A stretch of DNA of 64,000 nt from Bacteroidota bacterium (GTDB taxonomy: Bacteria; Bacteroidota; Bacteroidia; AKYH767-A; JAHEYN01): assembly GCA_947448795.1 (NCBI GenBank), contig CANFOZ010000004.1, forward strand, positions 4,086-68,085. The letters are read 5' to 3'. Below the pieces are notes generated by a model, which ran no database searches, had not been told where the DNA came from, and saw nothing but the letters and a program-made list of their open reading frames with translations. The position numbers and the translations under genes were made by a program. This document shows positions 16,198-33,707 of the stretch, in pieces; position 1 is the first letter of the stretch, and the number at the start of each line of letters is the position of its first letter.

Positions 16198-18063
16198 TTA
16201 TTGCTGCTCGACTGGCAGAATAGTAGAAGAAAAATCATCATCCTGCCAATCAGCTGTTCCAATAACAAACCAGGGCTTAGTTATTTGGCGTTTTAAAAAA
16301 TCCTTTTGAAAACCGACAGGGGTGTCAATTTTTTTACAAAGCACCTCGAAGTGATGTGCGCCCACCAATTGCTTAGCTCTCTTCGTTTTATACAACCAGA
16401 AAACGGTATATCGTTTGATTCCTGCTTCGAGCTTCGCGTTACTAACGGTTGGTCCGTTAACTCGAAATGTCCAATTTACCCAATTGAAATTATACAAATA
16501 ATCGCTTGGTAGTCCGCGCTGATCGATAATTGGGAGAGTAATGCGTTTGCCATTTTCAATACAATCGATGCGAATAACGTGGTTGTAATTTTTAAAATGG
16601 CTATCCATAAAAACCCCATGGTTTGTGATTCCTAAGAAATGATGGGACAGATTCGCAAGAGGTTGAAGAAATCGTGTTATTGAACTATAAAAGCCAAATC
16701 TGCTTAATGCCTGACTGGGCAATGGCGATTGCAAAGAGACATTGATTTGCAATAGTAGAATTCCAAAAAAAAGAAACTTCAATGTACCTCGAGTAAAAGC
16801 ATTCAAACTCAGATTCTTAAGAAGCCGGACACGCTTAGTAGATACCTCGGGATGGTTGCCTATTCCAATTTCGCAATTTTCAGCTGTGCAGCGCTCAGTG
16901 CTTCTACCTTTGGCTACTGTCGTATAGAACCACCTTGCGATGTGATAAATACCAGGTATACTTAGCAATAAATAAATCGGAAAAAACAAGATAGATTTCC
17001 GAAAAACCTGTCGATAAACATCAATCCCTTTATAAACCTTTTCATTATAAAGACCATGAACATCTCGCACCAGATTATCAAAAGAAAAAGCTTGCAAGGC
17101 TCGATGATTTGCTTGCTGCGTTTGAACATCAAAAAAGCGAATGCGTCCAAAAACATCTAAATACTCAACTACTATTTTTGTTCGTATGCACAATGGACAT
17201 TCCTTATCGTAAAAAAAGAGGAAGGGTTCTTGTTTAATTAATTTTTTAAAATTCAGCCTAATAGGCGGAAGCATTAGCACATATAATACAATACAAAATT
17301 GAGCGAATTGAGGTATTGGAAAAAAGATGTAAATTCCGATGTGTAAGCAAATACCAACCAGTAAAAGGATTAGCTTAAACCTCCTATTCCAAAACAAAAA
17401 AAGAAAAACCGCCTCAAAAATGATCGTTAAATAGCCAAAACCCTTCATCAACCACTCTTGATTTAGAATTGGCGTAGCATCAAAATTAACAGCAAAGGGC
17501 ATTGAAGCTGGAAGCCAAATACCTAAGCCTGATAACCATAATGGGGATTGTAATTTAAACAATATGGAATCAAAGTAAACCAAGCCAACACCAACAAAAA
17601 CCAATAAAAAGGAATAGAATTCAGAAACCTTTTCCTCTGGTAAAAATTCTTTTTTTAAGGTTGATGTGTTTAAGCGTTTAAGCAAATTGTCAACAGATAA
17701 GGAATCAGAAACCGGAGTAAACATCAGCAGAAAGTTAACACCCATGTAACCATAAAATACATGGTATTCGAACTGCGTTGCCGTACCAATCAACAACAAA
17801 CTCAATAAATAATTCACGACTGAAAAAAAGCGTGTTTTATAACCCAATATCAGACAAAAAAGGGTAATAAACCAAGCGTCTAAGGCATACGCCGTTGACA
17901 TCACGGATGGCACTCGGTATGGAATTGCATCATACACCAAATGCTGAAAACGATACAGCCGAATTGCTTCCAATAACAGAACAAGGCAATACAATATGCG
18001 AAAAACCGCTAAGTTTCTCGATGAGATTTTGTTATCGATGAGCTTGTTAAGAAACCTATTCAT
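16198..18063 (-). CDS. HTTM membrane domain fused to a DCC/DUF393 thiol-disulfide oxidoreductase module and a conserved C-terminal domain (paralogue A)
   Basis: SSRNLAVFRILYCLVLLLEAIRLYRF signature; FFYDKECPLC (DxxCxxC, encoded at 17188-17208) followed by GIDVY...IARWFY as in DUF393; an extra TM; and a C-terminal domain of about 175 aa. It starts 12 nt after the aminotransferase gene. Confidence 0.75.
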   Translation of the reverse strand: MNRFLNKLIDNKISSRNLAVFRILYCLVLLLEAIRLYRFQHLVYDAIPYRVPSVMSTAYALDAWFITLFCLILGYKTRFFSVVNYLLSLLLIGTATQFEYHVFYGYMGVNFLLMFTPVSDSLSVDNLLKRLNTSTLKKEFLPEEKVSEFYSFLLVFVGVGLVYFDSILFKLQSPLWLSGLGIWLPASMPFAVNFDATPILNQEWLMKGFGYLTIIFEAVFLFLFWNRRFKLILLLVGICLHIGIYIFFPIPQFAQFCIVLYVLMLPPIRLNFKKLIKQEPFLFFYDKECPLCIRTKIVVEYLDVFGRIRFFDVQTQQANHRALQAFSFDNLVRDVHGLYNEKVYKGIDVYRQVFRKSILFFPIYLLLSIPGIYHIARWFYTTVAKGRSTERCTAENCEIGIGNHPEVSTKRVRLLKNLSLNAFTRGTLKFLFFGILLLQINVSLQSPLPSQALSRFGFYSSITRFLQPLANLSHHFLGITNHGVFMDSHFKNYNHVIRIDCIENGKRITLPIIDQRGLPSDYLYNFNWVNWTFRVNGPTVSNAKLEAGIKRYTVFWLYKTKRAKQLVGAHHFEVLCKKIDTPVGFQKDFLKRQITKPWFVIGTADWQDDDFSSTILPVEQQ

Positions 18064-18075
18064 TGGTGTTTTAAA

Positions 18076-19200
18076 TCAAATGTCATAAAACGCCAATATA
18101 CGCTTTGTGATTTTAATCACATCGTCGTTGGTAAGCTCATAATACATAGGCAAGCGAATTAAGCGATCTGTAAATGCATCGCTATTGGGCAAGTCGCGCC
18201 CATCGTGTTTGGCTTTATAATACGGGCTTTTGTGTAGGGATAAATAATGGAATACAGCATGCATGTCTTGCTCTTTTAAATACGCTATCAGTTTTGTTCG
18301 CTGCTCTAGCGACTCGCAAACTAAGTAAAACATATGGGCATTGTTAGAAGCATAAATTGGCAGCATAGGTAGTCCCACTCCTTTGTCAATTAAGCAGGTT
18401 AATTGCTCAAAATACAGCTCCCAAATTTGCAAGCGTCGCTTTTGAATGCGATCTATATTTTCAAGCTGAGCAAATAGAAATGCTGCAATAATATCGGATG
18501 GAAGAAAGGAAGAACCAATATCCACCCAGCCGTATTTATCAACCTCTCCTCTAAAAAATGCCGAACGATTAGTCCCCTTTTCACGAATAATCTCGGCCCT
18601 ATTAATGAGCCGTTCATCATTCACTATCAACATCCCTCCTTCACCGGAAATAATATTTTTTGTTTCATGAAATGAAAACGCGCCAAGGTGACCAATGCTG
18701 CCAAGTGCTCGTCCTTTGTAGAAACTATCAATAGCTTGGGCTGCATCCTCCACCACAAAAAGCGAGTGTTTATCTGCAATGTCCATCACTCTATCCATAT
18801 CGCAAGCAACCCCAGCATAATGAACAACAACGATTGCTTTCGTTCGATGGTTAATTAATGGCTCAATTGCATCCACATCCATATTCGGATGCTCAGTTGA
18901 TGAATCAACAAATACAATTTTTGCTCCACGCAACACAAAGGCATTAACGGTTGAAACAAAAGTAAAAGAGGGGGCAATAACTTCGTCGCCTTCCTTGATA
19001 TCTAGTAAAATCGCTGCCATCTCCAAGGCATCGGTACAAGAGGTAGTTAAAAGCGCTTTTTTAAAGCCATATCGATCCTGAAAAAACTGATGGCATTTTT
19101 TTGTGAAGATTCCATCGCCTGATATCTTCAGATTGCTAACCGCTTCCTTAATGTAATCCGTTTCTTTTCCCGAAAGATAGGGTTTGTTAAATGTAATCAT
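18076..19200 (-). CDS. wecE: dTDP-4-amino-4,6-dideoxygalactose transaminase family (WecE/RffA, DegT/DnrJ/EryC1 class)
   Basis: LLTTSCTDALEMAAILLDIKEGDEVIAPSFTFVSTVNAFVLRGAKIVFVD closely follows the E. coli WecE core as I recall it. HETKNI holds the PLP lysine. Confidence 0.85.
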   Translation of the reverse strand: MITFNKPYLSGKETDYIKEAVSNLKISGDGIFTKKCHQFFQDRYGFKKALLTTSCTDALEMAAILLDIKEGDEVIAPSFTFVSTVNAFVLRGAKIVFVDSSTEHPNMDVDAIEPLINHRTKAIVVVHYAGVACDMDRVMDIADKHSLFVVEDAAQAIDSFYKGRALGSIGHLGAFSFHETKNIISGEGGMLIVNDERLINRAEIIREKGTNRSAFFRGEVDKYGWVDIGSSFLPSDIIAAFLFAQLENIDRIQKRRLQIWELYFEQLTCLIDKGVGLPMLPIYASNNAHMFYLVCESLEQRTKLIAYLKEQDMHAVFHYLSLHKSPYYKAKHDGRDLPNSDAFTDRLIRLPMYYELTNDDVIKITKRILAFYDI

Positions 19201-19211
19201 ATACTAAAGTA

Positions 19212-19544
19212 TCAAGTCCATAAAATACAAAGGCCAAACCATGTATAGCCAGCCAGTTTTAATGAGCGAATTGGTATTGCACTTGTGACCTCCTGCTTGT
19301 TAATCAACAAATCGGTGATGACCCAGCCAAAGAGAATAGAAAAGAAAAAAACACTTTTTTGACCAAATATGGAGACATAACCTCTCAAAAATGGAATATC
19401 ATTACACGATTCGTTTCCTTCCCTTTTTTTATAAAATTCAACAGGATGCACATAAACTAGCGTTGCAGCTCTTGCGCGAAACAGGGATGGGCTTTTGAAA
19501 TTAAATTTAGTTTTCAACTTCTCTATATTTAGCAGGGCTTCCAA
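19212..19544 (-). CDS. Hypothetical small protein with two C-terminal hydrophobic segments (uncertain)
   Basis: This is the only ORF filling the 306-nt gap between the acetyltransferase and aminotransferase genes on the operon strand. It overlaps the upstream gene by 38 nt and has no recognisable motif. Confidence 0.3.
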   Translation of the reverse strand: MEALLNIEKLKTKFNFKSPSLFRARAATLVYVHPVEFYKKREGNESCNDIPFLRGYVSIFGQKSVFFFSILFGWVITDLLINKQEVTSAIPIRSLKLAGYTWFGLCILWT

Positions 19545-20151
19545 AGTACAAACCGGATTTTGTCAATGTTTTTACAACTAGTGTTCCTGCACCTGTGCGC
19601 ACATAATCGGCAAGCTCGATGTTGTCTATAAGAATGGAGCCTATTCCAATTACACATCCAATCCCAATCTTGGTAAAACCTGCAATTTTAACAGCAGGTG
19701 ATACAAAGGAATGCGCTCCTACTTTTGAATCATGGGCAATCACAACCCCGGTGTTCAATAACACATTCTCTGCTAAAACAACATTGCGATCTAAAACACA
19801 ACCAGGCAAAACAAAGCAGCCAGCGCTAATATGAACCGAAGGGTCTATACTAGCAGAGGGATGAATAACGGTTGCGAATGGAATTCCCTTACTAAAATCA
19901 GTAAATACAGATTCTCGAAAAGACATGTGATTATAACCAATGCCAACCATTAATTCATCAAAAACGCCTGCTGCATAATCAGCACGAAGCTGTGCGATTT
20001 TTCCTAGAATCGGAAAACCAGCACGTAGCTCTGATGAATCAACATAGTCATCATAAAAACCGACGACACGAAAGCTAGGCAATAATGATGCATGATGAGC
20101 AATCAACTGGCCGAGGTCTGATGATCCGATTATCGCTAAGCGCTTATTCAT
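19507..20151 (-). CDS. NeuD/PglD-type sugar acetyltransferase (left-handed beta-helix)
   Basis: N-terminal Rossmann-like MNKRLAIIGSSDLG and C-terminal hexapeptide repeats (GAHSFVSPAVKIAGFTKIGIGCVIGIGSIL). Confidence 0.85.
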   Translation of the reverse strand: MNKRLAIIGSSDLGQLIAHHASLLPSFRVVGFYDDYVDSSELRAGFPILGKIAQLRADYAAGVFDELMVGIGYNHMSFRESVFTDFSKGIPFATVIHPSASIDPSVHISAGCFVLPGCVLDRNVVLAENVLLNTGVVIAHDSKVGAHSFVSPAVKIAGFTKIGIGCVIGIGSILIDNIELADYVRTGAGTLVVKTLTKSGLYFGSPAKYREVEN

Positions 20152-21079
20152 AAAAATTAGTCATTTCTTTTATTGAAAACAAAGGTCTTGCTTTTACCTC
20201 CTTATAAATCTTGCCAATATAAATGGCAGCCAATCCAATAAAAAACAACAGTATTCCAGTTGCACCAATAATGGTAATAATTATGGAGGGCCATCCCAAT
20301 TGAAATTGAATAAAGAAAAGTCGTAAAACAACAATTGTTATAAGCGCAAAAAAAGCAGAGAACATTAAATAAAAACCCAAGCGCACAGCCATCTTTAGTG
20401 GAATTTCTGAAAAGTCAAAAATGGCATCGAAGGCCAACTTCATTTTGCGATTGAAGTTAAACTTGCTTACTCCGGCAAAACGTTCACGCTGTTTTATCTC
20501 TAATGTTGTTTGCTTAAGTCCTATATGCATAAACATACCTTCAATAAAACGACTCTGCTCGTTGTATTTGAGAAAAGACGCAGCAAATCGCCGATTAAAA
20601 ATACGCATGACTGCGATGCCTTTTGGTATGTTCAAACCCGTGAACTTGTCTAATACCCACCAGAAGAGACCTGATAATACTACATTAATAAAAGAGTCTT
20701 TCTTCTCCTGTCTTTTTCCAAAAACCAAATCAAAACCTTTTTCAATCTCCTCAATAAAGCGCGGAATCTCATCTGGTGGATCTTGTAAATCAGGATCCAT
20801 ATATAACAAATAATCTCCTTTTGCATAGGTAATTCCAGCTGTAACCGCCAACTGCTTCCCGTGATTATAAGACAGCTCTATAAGTTTTATATGCGTGTTT
20901 GTTAGTGCAGCTTTTTTAATCAACCCAACCGTATTGTCTCGGCTTCCATCATCCACAAAAATGTACTCGTGTTGATAACGCTCTTTTAGCAGACTAAAAA
21001 CAGCATCCACTTCTTCGATGAAACGCAGTATACATGCTTCTTCAAAATAGACGGGCACAACCAAGGATACCAACTTCAT
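20144..21079 (-). CDS. Family 2 glycosyltransferase, polyprenyl-phosphate sugar transferase type (ArnC/GtrB/DPM1-like)
   Basis: VVPVYFEE, DDGSRDNT and DPDLQDPP (DXD) motifs, plus two C-terminal TM helices (LGFYLMFSAFFALITIVVL, IIITIIGATGILLFFIGLAAIYI). Confidence 0.85.
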   Translation of the reverse strand: MKLVSLVVPVYFEEACILRFIEEVDAVFSLLKERYQHEYIFVDDGSRDNTVGLIKKAALTNTHIKLIELSYNHGKQLAVTAGITYAKGDYLLYMDPDLQDPPDEIPRFIEEIEKGFDLVFGKRQEKKDSFINVVLSGLFWWVLDKFTGLNIPKGIAVMRIFNRRFAASFLKYNEQSRFIEGMFMHIGLKQTTLEIKQRERFAGVSKFNFNRKMKLAFDAIFDFSEIPLKMAVRLGFYLMFSAFFALITIVVLRLFFIQFQLGWPSIIITIIGATGILLFFIGLAAIYIGKIYKEVKARPLFSIKEMTNFYE

Positions 21080-21087
21080 AATTCTGT

Positions 21088-21741
21088 TTATTTTGCGTTT
21101 AATGTATGTAACAAACTTGGCACCTCATGGAATGAAATGATTCGATTTTTGAAGGCAGGATAGAATAAATCCCTATCCATAAGATACGCATGAATTCCAA
21201 GACGCTGAGCTGGCTCAATATCAAGCTTTAACGAATCTCCAATATACAAAACCTCCTCGCCTTGCAAGCCAAGTTTGTTTAATGCATAGTGATAGAATTC
21301 TACATTGGGCTTTCTCAGCTGCTCTTCCTCCGAACTTATAACATACGCTAATTCAAAAGCGAGCAAGCCTTTTAAAAGCGGTGCCAATCCTGTGTTAAAA
21401 TTGGAAAGCACAGAAATTGGTAATTGGTTTTTTTCAAGTCCTTCAACATCCTCGAATACTTTCCAAGGGAGATAGCTACAAGCCTTGAATAGATCTTCTA
21501 AGAGCTCCGCATGCGGAATTATTCCAACAGCAAACAGCAACTCAGTATTGAATAATCGATAAAAATCAGCATCCGTACGATCAGGAAACAGCGTGGATTC
21601 AGATAGCATTTTATGCGCGTGTTTTAACTTTCCGGCATCAACAGAATAACCATGATGCACAATAACCCCATGCATACGCGACCACAAATCGGGTTTGTGA
21701 ATTAGTGTATTGGCGGCGTCAATTAAAAGTGCGCGGATCAT
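21088..21741 (-). CDS. HAD-superfamily hydrolase (subfamily IA-like)
   Basis: LLIDAANTLI (motif I variant), SNFN, and YIGDSLKLDIEPAQRLG (motif IV). Confidence 0.75.
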   Translation of the reverse strand: MIRALLIDAANTLIHKPDLWSRMHGVIVHHGYSVDAGKLKHAHKMLSESTLFPDRTDADFYRLFNTELLFAVGIIPHAELLEDLFKACSYLPWKVFEDVEGLEKNQLPISVLSNFNTGLAPLLKGLLAFELAYVISSEEEQLRKPNVEFYHYALNKLGLQGEEVLYIGDSLKLDIEPAQRLGIHAYLMDRDLFYPAFKNRIISFHEVPSLLHTLNAK

Positions 21742-21743
21742 GA

Positions 21744-22703
21744 TTAAAAGATATAGGATTGAGTATCATCGCCATGCTCTGGATAGATTATGTCCATTAG
21801 AATACGAATAGCTCGGCCTGGCTTTACATTCGGTTTATCGGGTTCTTGTCCGTAAAGATACTCCTGCAAGGTGTAATAAACATCTTTAAAGCCAAACTGC
21901 GAGCGAATGGAATTCGTACCGGATATTCTGCAATTTACCTCAAAAGGAATAATACGGCCATCTTCAGTCACAATGGATTGCAGATTAGCACCTCCCCTAA
22001 TTTCAATGGTTTTAAGCATCGATTCTAAAATAACTTGCACCTGCTTGTCATATTTGCTGATTACTTCGCAATCCATAGTTGTTCCATGCTCCAAGTTTCG
22101 ACTCAACGTTATGTGACCATGTAAAACACCGTTTTTATTTACATAAAAAGCAGATGTAATCTCTTGACCTCTGTGAAACTCTTGTATTACATAGGTATCG
22201 TCTGAAAATGCAGCAGCTTCTGATGGATTAATAACTAATCCTCGAGATCCTCTGCCCTCGCGAGGCTTAGCTATGCATTCTTTAAACTGCCCTTTATAGG
22301 CAGAAGGCAAAATCGAATCAGCAAAAGGTATATTGAACGCACGATGATGCTCAAAACTCTTGTATTTATCAAGATAAATACTAGCCGCATTTGCACCTGA
22401 AACAGCGATAGAACAAGAAATAGATTCCTTTGCTAATGCTAGATGATAGACCTCATAATCCGTCGATGGTATAATTAAGTCAGCCTTTACTTCCTTTACT
22501 ATTGAACTCATTTGTTCTATATAGCCTGGAGCATAAGCTGGCAAAACCGTATACACCTTATCGCAGAAATGATTCCCTGCAGAAAAGGAAATCGTATTTG
22601 TACCAATAAGCTGTATGGGCAAGCCCGAGGCTTTAATATTTCGAAGAATCCCCTGGCCTACATTGCCCCCAATTCCTGTAACTAATACTGTCCTTTTATC
22701 CAT
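21744..22703 (-). CDS. ATP-grasp domain protein (carboxylate-amine ligase type)
   Basis: KPREGRGSRGL and FEVNCRISGT (E-x-N) motifs, with an N-terminal Rossmann-like VLVTGIGGNVGQG. Confidence 0.75.
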   Translation of the reverse strand: MDKRTVLVTGIGGNVGQGILRNIKASGLPIQLIGTNTISFSAGNHFCDKVYTVLPAYAPGYIEQMSSIVKEVKADLIIPSTDYEVYHLALAKESISCSIAVSGANAASIYLDKYKSFEHHRAFNIPFADSILPSAYKGQFKECIAKPREGRGSRGLVINPSEAAAFSDDTYVIQEFHRGQEITSAFYVNKNGVLHGHITLSRNLEHGTTMDCEVISKYDKQVQVILESMLKTIEIRGGANLQSIVTEDGRIIPFEVNCRISGTNSIRSQFGFKDVYYTLQEYLYGQEPDKPNVKPGRAIRILMDIIYPEHGDDTQSYIF

Positions 22704-23536
22704 TGAATAAGTTCTAATAGGCTTTCAACTACATTTTTCTCACTACGCCAATGCAAACGACTTCGCGTTTCGGCTCCATCAAAACTAGAGGAAAAAACCG
22801 GGTCGCTTCCTTGGTGCTCGATGCGAACATCGGATATCATTTTCTGAAGCTCTCGGGCTATTTCAATATTGGAGTATGATGTGCCAGAAACCGCTAAAAA
22901 AACACCGTTCTCGACAGACCTTGCAGCAGCATAAAAACAAGCTGCTACATCGTCAACATGAATGTAATCTTGCTTTCTAGAGCCATCCCCATAGATCACA
23001 ATCTCTTTCTTTTGAAGCGCATTTTGAATAATCAACGGCAAAAACGTGTTGCGTTTCATACCGGGCCCAAACATAGAAGAGATGCGCAAAATAGCATACG
23101 AATCACAAGCTGAAACAATCTTTTCGGCCCATAGTTTACTTAGTCCATAGGCGGAAACTTCATTTTGGACTGCATGTTCATTAACGGTTTGTGTCATAAC
23201 GCCATAAACAGAAACACTAGAGGCATGCACGATGCGTGCAGACGGAAATTGCTTTATAACATTTTCCAATAAGCGAACATTTGTTGCAAAAAGTGCTTCT
23301 TGATTTATATTCTGATTTGTTGGGATATAAGCACTGACAAAACAAACAACGGTATAAACATCGTCAAACTCATGCAGCTCTTCAACGGGCTTGCTTAGGA
23401 CAAAGCTTGGTATTCGATCTTTCTGAATGTGGTGTATACCATGCACATCGAAATGCGTCTTCAGCTTTTCAGCTATAGACACGCCCAAAATACTATTTAT
23501 TCCAACGATTAATGCCTTTTCTCGAGCATTCGACAT
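22682..23536 (-). CDS. NAD-dependent epimerase/dehydratase family (extended SDR)
   Basis: VGINSILG nucleotide-binding turn and a SAYGLSK (YxxxK) catalytic motif. Confidence 0.8.
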   Translation of the reverse strand: MSNAREKALIVGINSILGVSIAEKLKTHFDVHGIHHIQKDRIPSFVLSKPVEELHEFDDVYTVVCFVSAYIPTNQNINQEALFATNVRLLENVIKQFPSARIVHASSVSVYGVMTQTVNEHAVQNEVSAYGLSKLWAEKIVSACDSYAILRISSMFGPGMKRNTFLPLIIQNALQKKEIVIYGDGSRKQDYIHVDDVAACFYAAARSVENGVFLAVSGTSYSNIEIARELQKMISDVRIEHQGSDPVFSSSFDGAETRSRLHWRSEKNVVESLLELIQWIKGQY

Positions 23537-23628
23537 GTAGAGCCAATTAAGACCACAAATTACCGAAAATTACACTAACGGAAATACTTCCATCCAAGAT
23601 AATTACCAACGCTTATCAGTTGGTGGAA

Positions 23629-24198
23629 TTATTTACTTTGATCAAGTGCTAACTGTACCTGCTCTTTTAAATGGTCAAACTCTTCCGGTTTGTATAATCG
23701 TGTTAAAAACAAAACCTTTCCAGATCGGCCTATTAAAACATTTCGCGTAACACCGCTTTTCTTATCGGCAAATAAGCCAAAAACAGCCGCTCCCGGATCC
23801 AAGCCAAGTGGATAGGTGATTTTAGTGGAATTGCGCAGCTCTTCAAGCTTTGCAAGAGGTTCATCTCTATCAACGCCTATGAATAGCAAACCTGCATCCT
23901 TGTGTTTTTGCCAAATATCGGCTTCAAGAAATGGCATTTCTTGCCTGCAAACACTGCACCAACTAGCGGTGAACTGCAAAAGTATCACCTCGCCTTTATG
24001 TTCACTAAGTTTAAACCGCTTTCCTGAATCTAAAACAAGCTCAAAATCAGGTGCTGTATCACCCACCTGAATCATAAAGCCTAAAGAATCAGCAGCGTGT
24101 TTTATTGGCGCAATGGACTGCGCTTGAATAACACACGCAATAAGCAGACCCTGTACTGTAAAAAACAAGGATCGCAGGCTTAATGATCGATTGCACAT
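23629..24198 (-). CDS. TlpA/ResA-family periplasmic thiol-disulfide oxidoreductase
   Basis: Signal peptide and a thioredoxin-fold WCSVC motif (encoded at 23947-23958). 189 aa. Confidence 0.8.
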   Translation of the reverse strand: MCNRSLSLRSLFFTVQGLLIACVIQAQSIAPIKHAADSLGFMIQVGDTAPDFELVLDSGKRFKLSEHKGEVILLQFTASWCSVCRQEMPFLEADIWQKHKDAGLLFIGVDRDEPLAKLEELRNSTKITYPLGLDPGAAVFGLFADKKSGVTRNVLIGRSGKVLFLTRLYKPEEFDHLKEQVQLALDQSK

Positions 24199-24203
24199 AA
24201 TTA

Positions 24204-25790
24204 TCAGTTTGTAATTACAAGTTTTTTCACGCTCTGCTTAAGCCCATCGCTTAATGTTATAAAATAACATCCTGAAGGCAGGCCGCTCACCGAATACTGA
24301 TACTGAAAATCACCCGCTAAAAAGTCCTTTTCATCAAAAAAAACCTTGACCTTTTTACCTAGCATGTCGCTTGCAAACATCGTTAATCGTCTTGGTTTAG
24401 CTAAATAAAAGTGTGAAACAAGCAGCGATTCGGCTGGATTCGGACCTAGCATGAAGTCAAAATCTGGCGCAGGAACGGGATTAACAATCCCCGTTAAATC
24501 AACTAAAGGTGAATTATCAAGACTGATATTTTCATCACCATTCATGTAAACAGAAAACTCAAAAAAAGTAATCATCATCTCATCACCAGTTCCTTCACCT
24601 GCATAAACATTACCCGGAGGGTTAATTGGATTGTTTAAATTGGCAGTCGTATTATCGTAAAAAGCGGCAGACAACAAGCGGGTACCATCAGGAACTCGAA
24701 TCACATTCCGAAATTGATACGCCCCTTGCCAATCAAATTTCCAGTTCGGTATATCAACAAAAGGAATAGTGTCGCCAGACGGTGTAACCCCGCAAGCAGA
24801 AATCGACTTACCAACCCAATGCATGTGAGGGGCAACACCTAAAAGAGCCAAGTCAGCACCTGCATTTATCGTATACGTCTCGTGAAAGCTGCGCGTTGTA
24901 TTTGCAGGTATCATTAATGGCCCATCCGTCATGTTACTTGAGTGATTCAGAGCTGGCGAGAAATACATCGGCCTTGAAAAACCAGCGGTATTGTAAAACA
25001 CATTCATGTGCGAGGCATCAGTTAGACCAAGCGAACCTGGCGCGTAATGAAATTGCAATACAATATCTGCATTGGCCGGAATCTGAAAGGCAAATGCATC
25101 GGGTAAAACAAAAGGGGATGAACCCGGAACCCAAGCGCCAATCAAGTTCGCATTCGGTGTACCTACCCCTCCAAAACCTACATAGCCCGGTGCTGGATCT
25201 GCGGCATCTAAATTGGCGCATGTTCCTGTAGTGTCCCAAAAAACAAGAACATGATGAACAATCGCTTGATTACCTGGAATAAATTCTAAACACTTTATTT
25301 TCTTTTGTTGAGTAAAGCCAGATGGAATAGCGAAACAACGATATTCATCGGTACTCATACCAACGCTGTAAGCCGGTGTATTAATAATAGTGTCGGGTAT
25401 GCCCACTTGACTTGTATTTGAATAAACAGGTACCGACGGAGCTGTCGCTAAATCCCCGGTAGGCATGCCCCCCACCACAAAAGCTTGAATCTTTTGAATC
25501 TCTGCCACACTTAACAAACGCTCGTGAGCCAATCTTCTATATGCCGGGTCTGGAGGCCATGGAGGCATCTTCCGACTCAGCACATTATCGAGTATATGTG
25601 CCGCATTGGATGAAAAATCAGAATACGACTCGATCACAAAGGGCGCAATAGCACCCGCATGGTGACACGATGTGCATTTTGAATAAACAATTGGTGCAAC
25701 ATCGGCACTCCAAGTGGGAGTCTGCCCTTTCACGCTTCCGATAATTAAAAGAAAGACGAAAACTACGGCAACACGAATAGCTTTTTTCAT
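24204..25790 (-). CDS. Secreted haem-c domain / PHM-DBH-like copper monooxygenase-like protein with T9SS C-terminal sorting domain
   Basis: Signal peptide; CTSCH (CXXCH, encoded at 25662-25676) followed by RKMPPWPPD; a His/Met pattern of HH179-180, H248, HMH322-324 and MM405-406 spaced as in two-copper monooxygenases; and a C-terminal GPNPA...YFITL...LVITN sorting domain. Confidence 0.65.
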   Translation of the reverse strand: MKKAIRVAVVFVFLLIIGSVKGQTPTWSADVAPIVYSKCTSCHHAGAIAPFVIESYSDFSSNAAHILDNVLSRKMPPWPPDPAYRRLAHERLLSVAEIQKIQAFVVGGMPTGDLATAPSVPVYSNTSQVGIPDTIINTPAYSVGMSTDEYRCFAIPSGFTQQKKIKCLEFIPGNQAIVHHVLVFWDTTGTCANLDAADPAPGYVGFGGVGTPNANLIGAWVPGSSPFVLPDAFAFQIPANADIVLQFHYAPGSLGLTDASHMNVFYNTAGFSRPMYFSPALNHSSNMTDGPLMIPANTTRSFHETYTINAGADLALLGVAPHMHWVGKSISACGVTPSGDTIPFVDIPNWKFDWQGAYQFRNVIRVPDGTRLLSAAFYDNTTANLNNPINPPGNVYAGEGTGDEMMITFFEFSVYMNGDENISLDNSPLVDLTGIVNPVPAPDFDFMLGPNPAESLLVSHFYLAKPRRLTMFASDMLGKKVKVFFDEKDFLAGDFQYQYSVSGLPSGCYFITLSDGLKQSVKKLVITN

Positions 25791-27304
25791 TCTGTTTTGT
25801 TTTTTTGACTATGGTAAAGATAAAGAATACAATCGTACGAATCAGTCACTCGCTCAGCCCCCTTTAATGAAATCAATGACTGTTTTTTATCAGAAGACAA
25901 ACGCCCTTTTTCTTCTAAATAACCATTCGCAACCAAGCTATTATAAATACTTGCACTTTGGAATATTTGCTTTGCTGGAACTAGTACGTAAATAGTTTTT
26001 TTCGTTTCACCTAATTGATCACACTGCAACACAAGACCGGATGGACCTTCTGTTAACCGAAAATCCGAAGCGCCTAATTTAACAGCATAGTAATAGCGCG
26101 CATCACCTATGACAACCGAAGAAGCGGGTACTTTACTTGACACAAATGCATTAATTTTATTAGGAGATCGTTGATCCCATTCGGCTATCAGCTTGTCCAT
26201 TTTTACTAGAAAAAAACCAATGCCAATAAGGAGAAGAAAACCAGGCACTAGATAACTCCATAAGCTCGAAAAACGAGCCTTGTAATAAACACTTACTTCA
26301 ACAATAAAAAACAAACAGAATGGAATAATATATATATAATAAACACCTACTTCAAAGACCAAAATGTAAAATGCAAAAACATTGAGTATTGCAAGCAAAA
26401 CGGGCTTAGTCAAGATCTTCCTGGGCTCGCCAAAGAGAGTTAGACATAAGCAAAGCAAAAAGGCAGCCATAAGTGCTAATTGCGCCGGAAGGTAATTACT
26501 CACGCGATAACCCAATAGAAAATTGCCACCTATAAATCGGTCGGACGAATGCGCAGCTCCTAATACAGCTGTCAATTTAGCAAGGGAGCCAAAAGCATAC
26601 AGAAACCAAATTAGAAAAGGCACGCTAAAAATAAGAGTAGAAATAAGCACTTCGCGGACTGTCTGCAAATCTCTTCTCTTCACTAAACGAAGCACCATCA
26701 AAATTGCGATGGACAGCAGCAAGAAACCCGAACGGGGTGTTGTTAAAACCCCCATAGCCCCAAAGATTGCTGTCAAGCCCAAATCAAACATGCGAGACAA
26801 GGGTTGCTGCTTGTTTTCAGAACGCAGAAAAAAGTAGGAGGCGCCAAGCATCCAGCACGTTGCCATTAAGTCCATGCGCCCGCCATGCATGCTAGAAAAA
26901 ACACCCGGCTCAAAAAGCAACATAAGCAAACACAATAAAACAGCGAAATCGCCTCCTCGCGAAAAGGCCTTGAAGAAGCGCAATGCAACAAAAATCATAA
27001 CAAAACCTGAAAGCAACGACACCAAACGATATTGAACTATTCCAAAACCAAAAAACCGCTCAAATAGGGATGCTAAAAAGAAAAAATTAGGACCATAAAA
27101 CAAGACCTCTTGACCATGGAGCCTGTTTGGCAAAACCTCACAAACAAAATGCCCCGTTGTTCTTAATGAATGAGCTACACTGGAGAACATGACTTCGTCT
27201 AACCACGGCATCGGTGAAATCGACAAGGTAATACAATGGTATATCCCAAAAAAAAGAATCAAAACAACCGGGAGTAATAACCGGAGCTGGAAGAGGGATT
27301 TCAA
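25787..27304 (-). CDS. GT-C fold glycosyltransferase (ArnT/PMT-like, family 39/83 type)
   Basis: At least 10 hydrophobic segments, a first-loop PWLDEVMF (DE motif) and a soluble C-terminal part. TTG start. Its TGA overlaps the next ATG (ATGA at 25787-25790). Confidence 0.7.
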   Translation of the reverse strand: MKSLFQLRLLLPVVLILFFGIYHCITLSISPMPWLDEVMFSSVAHSLRTTGHFVCEVLPNRLHGQEVLFYGPNFFFLASLFERFFGFGIVQYRLVSLLSGFVMIFVALRFFKAFSRGGDFAVLLCLLMLLFEPGVFSSMHGGRMDLMATCWMLGASYFFLRSENKQQPLSRMFDLGLTAIFGAMGVLTTPRSGFLLLSIAILMVLRLVKRRDLQTVREVLISTLIFSVPFLIWFLYAFGSLAKLTAVLGAAHSSDRFIGGNFLLGYRVSNYLPAQLALMAAFLLCLCLTLFGEPRKILTKPVLLAILNVFAFYILVFEVGVYYIYIIPFCLFFIVEVSVYYKARFSSLWSYLVPGFLLLIGIGFFLVKMDKLIAEWDQRSPNKINAFVSSKVPASSVVIGDARYYYAVKLGASDFRLTEGPSGLVLQCDQLGETKKTIYVLVPAKQIFQSASIYNSLVANGYLEEKGRLSSDKKQSLISLKGAERVTDSYDCILYLYHSQKNKTE

Positions 27305-27340: not shown

Positions 27341-27426
27341 TTAAAATTAAAAAAGCAAGCATCATTGACAAAGCCAAGGAATGGGTATGGATAATAATTA
27401 ATAACTTGCAGAGAGGATCAAGCAAT

Positions 27427-29775
27427 ATGAAAAAACACACCTATCTAAGCATCATTTTTTTTCTGTTTTCATGGATTAACACACAGGCCCAAACGGCAGG
27501 CGATAGCATACATGTTGACCGCTATGAAATTGCTATCGACACCCTCAACTTTTCGTCCTCATCCTTTAAAGCTAGGACATCGGTCTCGTTGCACGCACGT
27601 GTTAACAGCCTCAATTGCATTTCTTTGATGCTTTTGCATCTACAAGTCGATTCAATTGTTTGCCAAGCTCAAACGCTTGCATACAGTTACAACGACACTA
27701 CGCTGCGTATTACCCCAAGCAGCATCTTGAGTCAAAATGACTCCTTAACACTCACCGTTTATTATCAAGGTCAACCAGTGATCGACCCTTCAGGTTGGGG
27801 TGGATTCTACTTCAGTGGAAATTTCGCTTACAACCTTGGCGTGGGCTTTGATGACACGCCACACAATTATGGCCGCGCATGGTTCCCTTGCATCGACGAA
27901 TTTACTGACAAGAGCTTTTATAAATTCCACATTACAACCCCCGCAACCTTTAAAGCGTTTTGCAACGGCATATTAACCGACAGCATCGACAATGGCAATG
28001 GGACTGTCACTTGGTCCTGGTCGATGAACCAACCCATCCCCTCCTACCTTGCCTCCATGGCTGTGGCGCCGTATTATACAATACACCGAAATTACAGCAG
28101 CATTCCTTTTTCATTAGCCTGTCTGCCTGCCGACACAATAAGCGCCATCGGCTCTTTTGCGCATATCGATACCGCAATAGCTACATTTATAAATCGCTTC
28201 GGCCCTTACCCCTTCGATAAAGTCGGATTCGTATTGACCCAACCCTTCGTCTATGGTGGCATGGAGCACGCTTCAAGCATTCACATTTCCAAAGCCTTTG
28301 TTGATGGTTCGCTCAGCTATGAAACCCTCTTTGCACATGAGCTAAGTCACATGTGGTGGGGCGATAATGCAACCTGTGTAAACGAAGGCAACATGTGGCT
28401 TAACGAAGGTTTTGCTACCTTCTGCGAAAGCATATTTACCGAAGCGCTTTATGGCGAAACGGCTTACAAAACGTCTTTCCGCAATAACCACCACAAGGTA
28501 CTCCAATTCAGTCACATCGAAGATGGTGGCTATCAAACCTTGAACACAGTTCCGCACACGTATACCTATGCTAACCTATCTGTTTATGCGAAAGGCGCCC
28601 TCACTGCACATACCTTGCGTAAATACATGGGTGATTCAGCCTTTTTTCAAGCGTGCCGATTCTATCACGCCCAACATGCCTTCGGAAACGCTTCCAGTCA
28701 AGATTTTCGCGATGCTATGGCAACAAGCTCTGGGCAAAACCTGAACGACTTCTTCGACGATTGGGTGCTTACTCCTGGATTCCCGCACTTCTCCATCGAT
28801 TCAACCACGATTGAAGCTGTTGGTAATGCATATCAAGTGCATGTTTGGACCAAGCAAAAAAGAAAAGGTGCAACGCATGTTTCTAAAATGTTGGTCGAAT
28901 TGAACTTTACCAACGGCATACAAGATACAAGCATTACCGTTTTATGCGATGCACCTACTAATTCTTTTGCGCTTATGCTGCCTTTCGAACCCACGTGGAT
29001 AGCGATCGACCGAAACGAAAAAATGATGGATGCGATTGCTGATTTCGAACTTCCAATTACAACAACAGGCACTAAGTATTTTCTAGAAACCAATGTAACA
29101 TGCAATGTTCAGAATAGTGGGTCAGGTGATAATATACTGCGCGTTGAGCACCACTTCGTCGCTCCCGATGACTTCAAATTCAATCCAGGAATTCGGATCT
29201 CCGATTACCACTATTGGTCTGTTGATGGCTTGATCAGTCCGAATTTTAGAACGAAAGCTACTTTCTCCTACGACGGATCCACAAATGGTAGTTCGGGGTA
29301 TCTCGACAACACCCTAATTACAGCAAAAGAGGACAGTTTAGTGCTTTTGTATCGCACCAGTGCTGCAAATGACTGGCAAAAAGAAACTGCTTTAGTCCAT
29401 AATCCAGGAAGTTTGACTGATAAACGTGGTAACTTTATCGTTGACTCGCTGAAAAAAGGAGAATACTGCCTTGGCTACCTTGATTATAGGGTGCAAGGAA
29501 TCAATTGCAAAAACAAGCCTGCAAAGGCGCAACTTGCTGTTTTCCCAAATCCAGCAAACAACCGAATACATATTCGCTTCGACTTGGATGGAGGCGAAAA
29601 GGCCTGGATGCAACTTACAGACCCGCTTGGAAAAATCGCAAATCGAATGGAGGTATTTGCGCACCAACAGGAAGTTAGCATCGACACATTTGGACTACCC
29701 GCAGGTCTTTATTATCTTACCTTACTTCCTTTAAACGGCTTGCCAATAACTCAATCTGTTGTTGTGTTTAAATAA
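27427..29775 (+). CDS. M1 family metallopeptidase (aminopeptidase N-like) with T9SS C-terminal sorting domain
   Basis: HELSHMWWGD with WLNEGFA (HEXXH-18-E), the signal peptide MKKHTYLSIIFFLFSWINTQA, and a C-terminal VFPNPANNRIHIRF...YYLTLL sorting domain. Confidence 0.85.
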   Translation: MKKHTYLSIIFFLFSWINTQAQTAGDSIHVDRYEIAIDTLNFSSSSFKARTSVSLHARVNSLNCISLMLLHLQVDSIVCQAQTLAYSYNDTTLRITPSSILSQNDSLTLTVYYQGQPVIDPSGWGGFYFSGNFAYNLGVGFDDTPHNYGRAWFPCIDEFTDKSFYKFHITTPATFKAFCNGILTDSIDNGNGTVTWSWSMNQPIPSYLASMAVAPYYTIHRNYSSIPFSLACLPADTISAIGSFAHIDTAIATFINRFGPYPFDKVGFVLTQPFVYGGMEHASSIHISKAFVDGSLSYETLFAHELSHMWWGDNATCVNEGNMWLNEGFATFCESIFTEALYGETAYKTSFRNNHHKVLQFSHIEDGGYQTLNTVPHTYTYANLSVYAKGALTAHTLRKYMGDSAFFQACRFYHAQHAFGNASSQDFRDAMATSSGQNLNDFFDDWVLTPGFPHFSIDSTTIEAVGNAYQVHVWTKQKRKGATHVSKMLVELNFTNGIQDTSITVLCDAPTNSFALMLPFEPTWIAIDRNEKMMDAIADFELPITTTGTKYFLETNVTCNVQNSGSGDNILRVEHHFVAPDDFKFNPGIRISDYHYWSVDGLISPNFRTKATFSYDGSTNGSSGYLDNTLITAKEDSLVLLYRTSAANDWQKETALVHNPGSLTDKRGNFIVDSLKKGEYCLGYLDYRVQGINCKNKPAKAQLAVFPNPANNRIHIRFDLDGGEKAWMQLTDPLGKIANRMEVFAHQQEVSIDTFGLPAGLYYLTLLPLNGLPITQSVVVFK

Positions 29776-31841: not shown

Positions 31842-33707
31842 ATGAATGGTTATTTAAAATCCTTTTTCAAACAATTCCTTTTCTGGCTCTTGCTCTTCCA
31901 GTCGGGTAGGCTCATCTTCCTTGTATATCACGTTAATAAACTTCATGCTGCAAGCAGTTCAGAGCTTTTAGGCGCTTTTTACTACGCGGTACCACTCGAC
32001 ATTTCAGCCGCTTGTTATCTTTCATTCATTCCCTGGATATTGATAACCACGCAGCTTTTTAGTAGTCATACAATTATTTCAAAGGCACTCCGAATATACT
32101 TCCTGTTAATGACAGGACTGGTTTGCACCATCCTCGTTTCTGAATTGGAGATTTATACCCAATGGGGCACAAAACTATCCGTAAAGATTTTTCCTTATCT
32201 CACGCAGCCCACCGAGATGGTAAAATCCTTATCCGGGTTGCTATTCACGATGCTGCTAATCCTAGCAACGCTTTACATATTTGGCACCTATACGGTTTAC
32301 AAACGATTTGTTCATGAAGAGCCCGAGATAAAAAAAGACAGAAGCCTTTTGTTGTATTTGCTCGCCCTTCTTATTCCTGTTTTTTTAATCATAGGACTCC
32401 GTGGAGGAATTCAGCAGATTCCCATTAACCAAAGTGCTGCCTATTATTGCACCAAAGATGTGCTCAATTGCGCTGCTGTAAACCCTTCGTGGAATCTTAT
32501 TCAAAGCATCGATCAAAACAGCAAGATGATGAACACCAACCCGTTCATCTCGATGTCCATGTTGGAGGCAAAAGCCCTGCGCGACTCCCTCTATTTTATT
32601 GAAAAAGACACGAGTATTCAGGTGCTAAGAATTAAAAAGCCAAATATCGTGCTCTTAATTTTGGAAGGATTTTCTGCGGATAACTTAACCACTCTTGGTG
32701 GCTATAAAGATGCCGCTCCTAATCTCGATTCCCTATGTAAAAAAGGATTGCTTTTTTCGAATTGCTATTCCTCTGGCGACCGCTCTGAACAAGGCATGGC
32801 AGCTATTTTTAGCGGCTTCCCTGCACAGCCCACCACCTCCATTTTGCGACAGCCCGATAAGTTTATAAAACTACCGGCGCTTACATCTTCGCTTAAAAAG
32901 GCTGGCTATTCAACCAGCTTTTATTTCGGAGGTCAACTGAGCTATGGCAATATCAAAGCCTTTATGATCTATAATGGCATCGACCAAATTGTGGAGCTTG
33001 ATCAATTCGCAGATCAATCAAAGGAAGGAAAGCTAGGCATCCACGATGAAGTGGTATTAAAGCGTCAATTAACTGGTCTTCAGAATACACCCCAACCCTT
33101 CTTCTCTACCCTCTTCACGCTAAGTACGCATACTCCGTACGACATACCAACCGCACATAAATCTATTTCTTGGGCAGGAGAAAATGAGGGATATATCAAT
33201 GGCGTAATGTATTCCGACAGCTGTATCGGCGCTTATTTTAACGAAGCGAAAAAACAAGCTTGGTATAAAAACACTGTGTTTGTAATCGTTGCCGACCACA
33301 GTCATGCAAACCCGCGCAACAACGATTTCTATTCACCTGCACACCGCAAGATTCCCTTACTCTTTTTTGGCCCTGCCTTGGATGATGCTTATGCTGGCAA
33401 ACAAATCACACATACCCTGTCGCAAGTTGATTTGCCGGCAACTCTTTTAAATCAGCTAGGACTTGATAACAAAGCCTATCGCTGGAGCAAGAATGCCCTT
33501 AACCCCTACAGCAAAGAGTTTGCCTTTAATGCGTATTTGGATGGCTCAACAGGCTTGATTCTCAACGATTCAAACTACTACGCCTACAACAAAACCATGA
33601 ACCTCTATCATCTTGATCATTTTACGGATACGAGTCGAAGGGCTAAAACCATCAAGACCGGTTCTGCATATATTCAAACGCTCATTCAACAGTATCTAGA
33701 GTATTAA
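31842..33707 (+). CDS. LTA synthase family / sulfatase-fold phosphotransferase membrane protein
   Basis: Five N-terminal TM segments followed by an alkaline-phosphatase/sulfatase-like domain (VLLILEGFSADN, GDRSEQG, IVADHSH). Confidence 0.8.
   Translation: MNGYLKSFFKQFLFWLLLFQSGRLIFLVYHVNKLHAASSSELLGAFYYAVPLDISAACYLSFIPWILITTQLFSSHTIISKALRIYFLLMTGLVCTILVSELEIYTQWGTKLSVKIFPYLTQPTEMVKSLSGLLFTMLLILATLYIFGTYTVYKRFVHEEPEIKKDRSLLLYLLALLIPVFLIIGLRGGIQQIPINQSAAYYCTKDVLNCAAVNPSWNLIQSIDQNSKMMNTNPFISMSMLEAKALRDSLYFIEKDTSIQVLRIKKPNIVLLILEGFSADNLTTLGGYKDAAPNLDSLCKKGLLFSNCYSSGDRSEQGMAAIFSGFPAQPTTSILRQPDKFIKLPALTSSLKKAGYSTSFYFGGQLSYGNIKAFMIYNGIDQIVELDQFADQSKEGKLGIHDEVVLKRQLTGLQNTPQPFFSTLFTLSTHTPYDIPTAHKSISWAGENEGYINGVMYSDSCIGAYFNEAKKQAWYKNTVFVIVADHSHANPRNNDFYSPAHRKIPLLFFGPALDDAYAGKQITHTLSQVDLPATLLNQLGLDNKAYRWSKNALNPYSKEFAFNAYLDGSTGLILNDSNYYAYNKTMNLYHLDHFTDTSRRAKTIKTGSAYIQTLIQQYLEY

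Follow-up and report, generated by a model that had tools for sequence, protein, structure and literature searches.

The 64,000-nucleotide stretch of Bacteroidota DNA analysed here (hereafter the window; contig CANFOZ010000004.1, positions 4,086 to 68,085) poses a question about one of its genes: what does a protein do that appears to join a haem c-binding motif to the copper ligands of eukaryotic two-copper monooxygenases, and with which of its neighbours does it work? The gene lies on the minus strand (24204..25790) and encodes 528 residues from an ATG start in the list of open reading frames (ORFs); a membrane protein gene overlaps its start and a redoxin gene follows its stop codon. Our answer, which we hold with somewhat better than even confidence, is that it encodes a haem-c/two-copper monooxygenase precursor, exported by Sec and secreted by the type IX secretion system (T9SS), in which a class I monohaem cytochrome c is fused to a two-copper core of the PHM/DBH type (peptidylglycine alpha-hydroxylating monooxygenase and dopamine beta-hydroxylase). 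The data support the domain identities, the ligand conservation, the sorting signal and the linkage to a redoxin; from these we infer the direction of electron flow and the chemistry, and we propose with moderate confidence that the haem donates electrons to the CuH copper site, replacing ascorbate.

We located the motifs on which this reading depends in both the ORF translation and the DNA, and every residue named in the original prediction was found at its given position (all features of the gene are on the minus strand). The N-terminal part contains the haem-attachment motif C39-T-S-C42-H43 (25662..25676; TGC ACA TCG TGT CAC) and R73KMPPWPPD81, which includes M75-P-P-W-P-P (25551..25568), with M75 as the candidate sixth haem ligand. 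The body contains D148EYRCF, IVH179H180VLVF (H179 and H180, 25251..25256, CAT CAT), LQFH248Y (H248, 25047..25049), APH322MH324WVG (H322-M-H324, 24819..24827) and GDEM405M406 (M405, 24576..24578), and the C-terminus reads GPNPA...YFITL...LVITN. The predicted HH / H / HxH / M spacings of 68, 74 and 81 residues were likewise confirmed. The corresponding ligands of PHM, H107/H108/H172 and H242/H244/M314, are spaced by 64, 70 and 70 residues.

A database search returned at least 519 homologues of the monooxygenase; among the matches listed, the best-scoring are nearly all 510–535 residues long with the same architecture, and most of them hold precomputed Pfam assignments to PF01082, PF03712 and PF18962. 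In an alignment of 36 Bacteroidota homologues (42–54% identity to the query), C39, C42, H43, M75-P80, H179, H180, H248, H322, H324, E404 and M405 were invariant in 36/36. After the addition of 10 Planctomycetota relatives (26–29% identity to the query), C39, C42, H43, M75PPW, H179, H180, H248, H322, H324, E404, M405 and M406 were still invariant, and we read the motif series as more than a chance pattern. Species-representative genomes contain at least 581 loci, nearly all from Chitinophagales, Flavipsychrobacter, Saprospiraceae or other Bacteroidota, and the closest of these is only 53% identical to the window monooxygenase. Cultured bacteria with a homologue include Flavipsychrobacter stenotrophus RB1R16 (L020) and Polluticoccus soli (P0059). 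Searched against 1.84 billion cluster representatives (50% identity), the family profile matched 4,154 at E ≤ 1e-30 and 11,930 at E ≤ 1e-10. Their source annotations are generic, a few reading 'Copper type ascorbate-dependent monooxygenase' or 'mono/diheme cytochrome c family protein'. Full-text literature searches found no published work on bacterial PHM/DBH-type enzymes, consistent with the earlier statement that bacterial members are uncharacterised.

We assessed the copper core by profile searches, alignments and a structural model. The profile check put forward in the original prediction divided: the query itself scored below both copper monooxygenase cut-offs, whereas PF01082 was matched by 34 of the 36 homologues (E ≤ 0.01, best E 7.5e-10) and PF03712 by 35 of the 36 (E ≤ 0.01, best E 4.4e-9), some of them above cut-off (PF01082, 34.1 bits in P0149 and 32.9 bits in P0158; PF03712, 26.5 bits in P0168 and 25.9 bits in P0178). 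Transitive and profile evidence together point to membership of the query in these two families. The query alone gave a marginal DBH match in a PDB sequence search (E 0.066); the family profile (hmmsearch) matched human DBH (4ZEL) at E 4.7e-7 and rat PHM at E 2.4e-5, with VHH aligned on VHH, HY on HY and PHMH on HTH. Comparison with rat PHMcc by hhalign (94.7% probability, E 5.6e-8, 245 columns) paired VHH with VHH, QFHY with QVHY, PHMH with VHTH and DEM405M with DEM314C; the rat sequence used agrees with the PDB alignment at positions 27–217, and the DEMM/DEMC pairing, which lies outside the part so confirmed, is provisional. A profile of the C-terminal copper domain alone reached DBH at E 0.64, in an alignment that stops short of the Met, and a 54-residue peptide around DEMM found no match in the PDB.

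An AlphaFold2 model built from the family alignment (mean predicted local distance difference test score, pLDDT, 83.6) was compared with the PDB using Foldseek. The 31 best matches were all PHM or DBH (E 1.8e-13 to 3.4e-10; target TM-score about 0.6–0.69), and the next matches had E values above 3e-5, so the fold part of the proposed structure check favours the assignment. The PHM matches span both an N-terminal CuH jelly-roll (about residues 131–270; 24981..25400; PF01082), which aligns to DBH and PHM, and a C-terminal CuM jelly-roll (about residues 271–430; 24501..24980; PF03712). H179 and H180 correspond to PHM H107/H108 and H248 to H172 as CuH ligands, H322 and H324 to H242/H244 as CuM ligands, and M405 in D-E-M-M to M314 in D-E-M-C as the CuM thioether ligand. 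We are highly confident that the core is a PHM/DBH-type double jelly-roll with all six copper ligands aligned and conserved, and the ligand parallel first noticed by eye holds in the family profile, in hhalign and across two phyla. The sites are predicted to be occupied by copper.

The same fold comparison bears on a non-catalytic explanation, in which a PHM/PNGase F-type jelly-roll at the cell surface would bind, for example, glycans, and the His and Met residues would be structural or scavenge metal. Weak Foldseek matches to PNGase F (1pgs) and to jelly-roll carbohydrate-active enzymes fit this explanation, as does the grouping of PHM and PNGase F in one Pfam clan, within which PHM has been described as the eukaryotic counterpart of bacterial PNGase F (PMC8812541). 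The PHM/DBH matches, however, are at least eight orders of magnitude better than those to other folds, and the six metal ligands, the DEM motif and the full haem motif are invariant across two phyla, as expected for a working redox enzyme. Recurrent neighbour clusters contain no SusC/SusD-type or other polysaccharide-utilisation genes, and a link to polysaccharide utilisation is not supported. We consider a mere binding module very improbable.

For the N-terminal module (about residues 24–110; 25461..25721), we scanned isolated domains (residues 24–128) from 22 family members. Cytochrome_CBB3 was matched by all 22 (best E 9.8e-6), Haem_bd (PF14376) by 21 of 22 (best E 6.8e-6) and Cytochrom_C by 16 of 22, in each case below cut-off; the homologous domains of P0148 and P0238 scored 34.1 and 37.1 bits with Cytochrome_CBB3, above its cut-off of 27. 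A profile of the domain found haem-c domains (hydrazine synthase alpha, CcoP) as its best PDB matches, at E values of only about 0.1, and aligned at both ends with that of hydrazine synthase alpha. In the AlphaFold2 model, helices at residues 27–38 and 95–106 lie around the CXXCH motif and the Met. Since both CXXCH and M75 are invariant, we read the module with fairly high confidence as a monohaem His/Met class I cytochrome c domain predicted to bind haem, and the earlier proposal of a haem-c module is upheld.

Export signals occupy both ends of the protein. The signal peptide (residues 1–22; 25725..25790) has a basic N-terminus and a hydrophobic core (MKKAIRVAVVFVFLLIIGSVKG, followed by QTP), and the family consensus at the cleavage point is ...AQTP. 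Read from the sequence, cleavage probably falls before Q23, which would leave Gln at the mature N-terminus; Gln at +1 fits the Bacteroidetes 'Q-rule' (PMC5837995). At the other end, residues 450–528 (24207..24443) form a type-A T9SS sorting domain, as had been predicted: PF18962 matched residues 450–526 of 528 at 29.6 bits (cut-off 27), TIGR04183 fell slightly under its cut-off (21.2 against 23 bits), and the family profile matched the solved T9SS sorting domains 5jvk, 8glk_D and the mirolase domain 8qb1. In longer relatives, spacers of the PKD, Ig, BiPBP_C or CHU_C-type Ig kinds separate the core from the sorting domain, an arrangement we take as typical of surface-displayed T9SS enzymes. An M1-family peptidase encoded divergently from the membrane protein gene (27406..29775, plus strand) has a T9SS sorting domain of its own, which suggests that the organism uses this system for other enzymes too. 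Along with the affiliation of relatives to Chitinophagales and Saprospiraceae, it gives indirect support for T9SS machinery in the genome. We regard T9SS export of the monooxygenase with fairly high confidence and predict an extracellular location.

The second part of our question concerns partners. The upstream 505-residue ORF (25787..27304, minus strand) overlaps the monooxygenase start through ATGA at 25787–25790 (...ACA GAA TGA / ATG AAA), as a direct reading of the DNA confirmed. Alone, this protein matched neither Pfam nor PDB sequences, and it has five database relatives. PMT_2 or PMT was matched by three of six aligned homologues (E 4.5e-10 and 2e-9). Foldseek on a low-confidence model (pLDDT 54) ranked ArnT (5ezm) first, at E 6.4e-6, followed by PglB, STT3, AftA and Pmt4, and the first loop contains an invariant D36. 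Where translation begins is uncertain, since the cluster that holds the window protein at 100% identity (P0121) has a 474-residue representative. From these homologue and model matches, the gene is reasonably assigned as a putative ArnT/PMT-like GT-C membrane glycosyltransferase, in agreement with the original prediction.

A sugar-modification run downstream of the redoxin (18076–23536, minus strand) encodes a DegT aminotransferase, a PglD-like hexapeptide acetyltransferase, a GT2, a HAD hydrolase, an ATP-grasp protein and an SDR epimerase, so that the monooxygenase and redoxin genes separate the GT-C gene from the other sugar genes. Together, the sugar genes and the GT-C gene resemble an Arn-type pathway, in which a polyprenyl-phosphate-linked amino sugar would be made and then transferred in the periplasm.

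This arrangement invites the idea that the monooxygenase works with the GT-C and Arn-like genes, oxidising or hydroxylating the glycan, lipid-linked sugar or glycoprotein of the cluster, possibly in a stoichiometric complex. The composition of the cluster is compatible with such a role, and the 4-nucleotide overlap is kept in a relative of 98% identity (L087). Neighbour tests, by tblastn of the window neighbour proteins against 85 related loci and by unbiased clustering of all ORFs within 3.5 kb at 84 loci, gave a different picture. A GT-C homologue occurred near only one of the 85 loci (L005), where it lies about 1 kb upstream of tandem monooxygenase paralogues (41% identity to the query, all ligands kept; the whole arrangement lies at L005:4364-7590 and L005:1767-3293), a point in favour of the pairing. 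Four of the sugar-modification genes had no neighbour in the 85 loci, and the epimerase gave one marginal partial match (L043), leaving the sugar genes without a convincing counterpart. No partner was common to more than 10 of the 84 loci, and the recurrent neighbours reflect housekeeping or clade-specific synteny (ValRS, DUF4199, a protein of about 297 residues and one of about 625 residues); individually inspected homologues were mostly standalone genes. Moreover, the GT-C family is tiny (five database matches) against thousands for the monooxygenase, and a T9SS-secreted enzyme and an inner-membrane GT-C would act in different compartments. The GT-C pairing is lineage-specific, not a property of the family, and because it is found at only 1/85 loci it says little about function. 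The overlap itself is real, but the emphasis that the original prediction placed on stoichiometric co-expression is unsupported, and we consider joint action with the GT-C and Arn-like genes quite unlikely.

Two observations belong beside these neighbours. At nine loci of one subclade (L019, L032, L034, L037, L048, L054, L069, L075 and L082), the gene for the protein of about 297 residues precedes the monooxygenase, and further upstream, on the opposite strand, lies that for the protein of about 625 residues. By eye, we take the latter to resemble PQQ-dependent soluble sugar dehydrogenases; it could be an extracellular electron source or mere synteny. Within the monooxygenase, D340 and T341 (24768-24773) are invariant in the 36 homologues and D186-T187-T188 (25227-25235) is well conserved. 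Both fit the Bacteroidota O-glycosylation motif D-(S/T)-(A/I/L/V/M/T), of possible interest near a PMT-like GT-C.

We then considered the downstream gene (23629..24198, minus strand; 189 residues), which begins 5 nucleotides past the monooxygenase stop codon. It encodes a predicted exported TlpA/ResA-like thiol-disulfide oxidoreductase with a WCSVC motif (Redoxin, 67.1 bits; AhpC-TSA, 63.3 bits; ResA subfamily, E 2.7e-19). The 5-nucleotide spacing is kept in relatives at 98% (L087) and 81% (L086) identity. In the latter, the monooxygenase was called as two ORFs of 391 and 125 residues with a 4-nucleotide overlap (L086:24-1573), owing to a frameshift or else to a mistake in sequencing or assembly. 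Immediately past the redoxin stop codon is a terminator-like hairpin whose T-run is weak (23605-23624, minus strand); the GT-C, monooxygenase and redoxin genes may therefore form one transcription unit, apart from the downstream sugar genes. A sigma-70 promoter scan, whose model does not represent Bacteroidota promoters, found no more sites than in shuffled sequence. Beyond the sugar genes are tandem 621-residue paralogues (14287-16152 and 16198-18063, minus strand; 59% identical) with a central DCC1-like thiol-disulfide oxidoreductase domain; a third 621-residue ORF (31842-33707) is unrelated to this pair.

Evidence for a redoxin partnership came mainly from gene fusions. The protein P0238 consists of two tandem units, each an AhpC-TSA/Redoxin domain, a cytochrome c and a copper core, with a hydrophobic stretch after each. 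A search with its first unit matched at least 7,029 clusters at E ≤ 1e-10. The 120 listed matches (P0274-P0393) are 579–775 residues long and carry redoxin Pfam domains, and those source names that exist are all Planctomycetota. They are named only 'redoxin domain-containing protein' or 'peroxiredoxin/mono/diheme cytochrome c family protein': their precomputed Pfam lists show no copper domain, and none was detected in P0238 at E ≤ 0.001, although the ligands are all conserved. A further variant, P0148, has two cytochrome c plus copper-core units with EF-hand motifs. That such fusions recur speaks for a functional connection of a thioredoxin-fold protein with the haem-copper module. The connection may lie in electron supply, in the handling of copper or of peroxide, or in reducing the CXXCH cysteines so that haem can be attached. 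Because fusions elsewhere join a redoxin to this module, we regard the redoxin as a better-supported partner than the GT-C and as a probable functional partner.

Peroxide handling leads to another explanation, in which the haem is not the point of electron entry. The protein would then either run on peroxide, as a peroxygenase or oxidase, or sense O2 or redox state, and H2O2 would be dealt with by the redoxin or peroxiredoxin-like partner. Shunt reactions with H2O2 are open to copper monooxygenases, PHM and lytic polysaccharide monooxygenases (LPMOs) among them. The Planctomycetota fusions, which JGI names 'peroxiredoxin', have one active-site Cys (ECPLA) in their AhpC/TSA-type domain. The window redoxin, however, has a standard CXXC reductase motif, monohaem His/Met class I cytochromes c are typically electron carriers, and the full CuH triad is strictly conserved, the sole known role of CuH being electron storage and transfer. 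We judge a peroxide-driven or sensory function unlikely, and prefer the haem as electron donor.

The proposed sequence of events would run as follows. After export to the periplasm, haem would be attached covalently to C39 and C42, with H43 and probably M75 as axial ligands, and copper would be loaded into CuH (H179, H180, H248) and CuM (H322, H324, M405); the adjacent TlpA-like redoxin may help at this cofactor-loading stage or serve as a redox partner. The folded holo-protein would then pass the outer membrane through the T9SS and be displayed on, or released from, the cell surface. There, the haem would take single electrons from an external reductant and pass them to CuH, in the role that ascorbate has in eukaryotes, and CuM would bind O2 and hydroxylate a C-H bond of the substrate. 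In PHM, whose CuH ligands are H107, H108 and H172, each copper takes one electron from ascorbate, and a one-electron haem carrier would therefore be a chemically sensible substitute (PMC6123673).

Three residues of PHM bear on the substrate. In PHM, R240, N316 and Y318 hold the C-terminal carboxylate of the substrate. These anchors are not kept in the bacterial protein, where hhalign aligned them with A320, I407 and F409, respectively. With R240 and N316 not conserved, the substrate is probably not peptidyl-glycine, nor another C-terminal glycine as in PHM, and the parallel would be one of mechanism and not of substrate.

Several results weigh against our interpretation. On the query itself, PF01082 reached only 17.7 bits (residues 149–250; cut-off 30) and PF03712 only 13.3 bits (residues 294–409; cut-off 23), and Cytochrome_CBB3 scored 15.1 bits on the whole protein and 20.5 bits on the isolated domain (cut-off 27). 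Confidence in the AlphaFold2 model is lowest in the haem domain, where pLDDT falls below 50 at residues 43–52 and 78–80; this is unsurprising at a haem pocket, because it was modelled without the cofactor. The replacement of R240 and N316 means that no substrate can be proposed from homology, and it is not obvious which physiological reductant could serve the haem of an enzyme that lies beyond the outer membrane. Finally, neither a redoxin nor any other partner is consistently adjacent across the 84 Bacteroidota loci: phmmer with redoxin domains found a redoxin nearby in only one of them (L004), where it is divergent. The ECPLA redoxins of the fusions and the WCSVC redoxin of the window may also do different jobs.

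Comparison with known systems places the protein more precisely. Among the closest is PHM (the core of PAM; 1PHM, 1OPM, 1SDW), with which it shares the double jelly-roll (Foldseek E about 1e-13, target TM-score about 0.65), the aligned CuH HH...H and CuM HxH...M ligands (the latter in a DEM motif) at similar spacing, and a Cys aligned with PHM C81 that is kept in at least 90% of bacterial members. It differs from PHM in its low identity (15–18%), in the sub-threshold Pfam scores, in the missing substrate anchors and PAL lyase partner, and in its added N-terminal c-type cytochrome and T9SS sorting domain. PHM acts in secretory granules and depends on ascorbate, whereas the bacterial monooxygenase is predicted to be extracellular.

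The group of DBH, tyramine beta-monooxygenase (TBM) and MOXD1 (4ZEL) is similar in another respect: DBH, the best profile match, also places an extra N-terminal domain before the copper core. DBH-type hydroxylases fuse a common core to differing extra domains, and the DOMON domain of DBH, a beta-sandwich, shares its fold with the haem-binding cytochrome domain of cellobiose dehydrogenase but lacks the haem ligands (PMC4846438). The bacterial extra domain is, in contrast, a helical class I cytochrome c with CXXCH, and there is no dimerisation domain. The bacterial protein would in effect be a DBH-like version whose extra domain is a genuine cytochrome.

A functional analogy is offered by the cellobiose dehydrogenase cytochrome (AA8), a mobile haem domain that feeds single electrons to extracellular copper monooxygenases, the LPMOs (AA9); the bacterial haem domain may work in a comparable way. 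The folds are unrelated, and that haem is of type b, whereas it is of type c here. In the bacterial monooxygenase, the haem and copper modules are on one chain, and no dehydrogenase domain recharges the haem. The Planctomycetota fusions are close as well: their haem-c plus two-copper module is the one found here, and all its ligands are conserved. They differ in their N-terminal AhpC/TSA-type redoxin (ECPLA), and the C-terminus of P0238 is a hydrophobic stretch where the window monooxygenase has its T9SS sorting domain. These fusions also appear uncharacterised.

Taken together, we regard the bacterial protein as a variant of an established enzyme type and not as a system in a category of its own. 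To our knowledge, work on the 'non-coupled' two-copper enzymes (PHM, DBH and TBM) has been confined to eukaryotes, where the entry of electrons at CuH and their passage to CuM are still debated. A bacterial version with a built-in one-electron donor that is spectroscopically visible would provide a soluble system in which to trigger and follow electron entry and inter-copper transfer, and might work without ascorbate. More tentatively, and as a possibility we would not yet favour, the haem-c plus two-copper module may mark an extensive bacterial branch of the PHM/DBH enzymes that has gone unrecognised, with thousands of sequence clusters in Bacteroidota and Planctomycetota, in which ascorbate is replaced by a protein relay from a thioredoxin-fold protein through haem c to CuH and CuM. 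The Bacteroidota form, exported by the T9SS, would then be self-sufficient in hydroxylating C-H bonds outside the cell, on a class of substrates with which copper monooxygenases have yet to be connected. Members abound in Chitinophagales and Saprospiraceae of soil and freshwater and in Planctomycetota, where database labels name only its sorting or redoxin domain. Correct naming would affect thousands of annotations and points to an unexplored extracellular oxidative chemistry.

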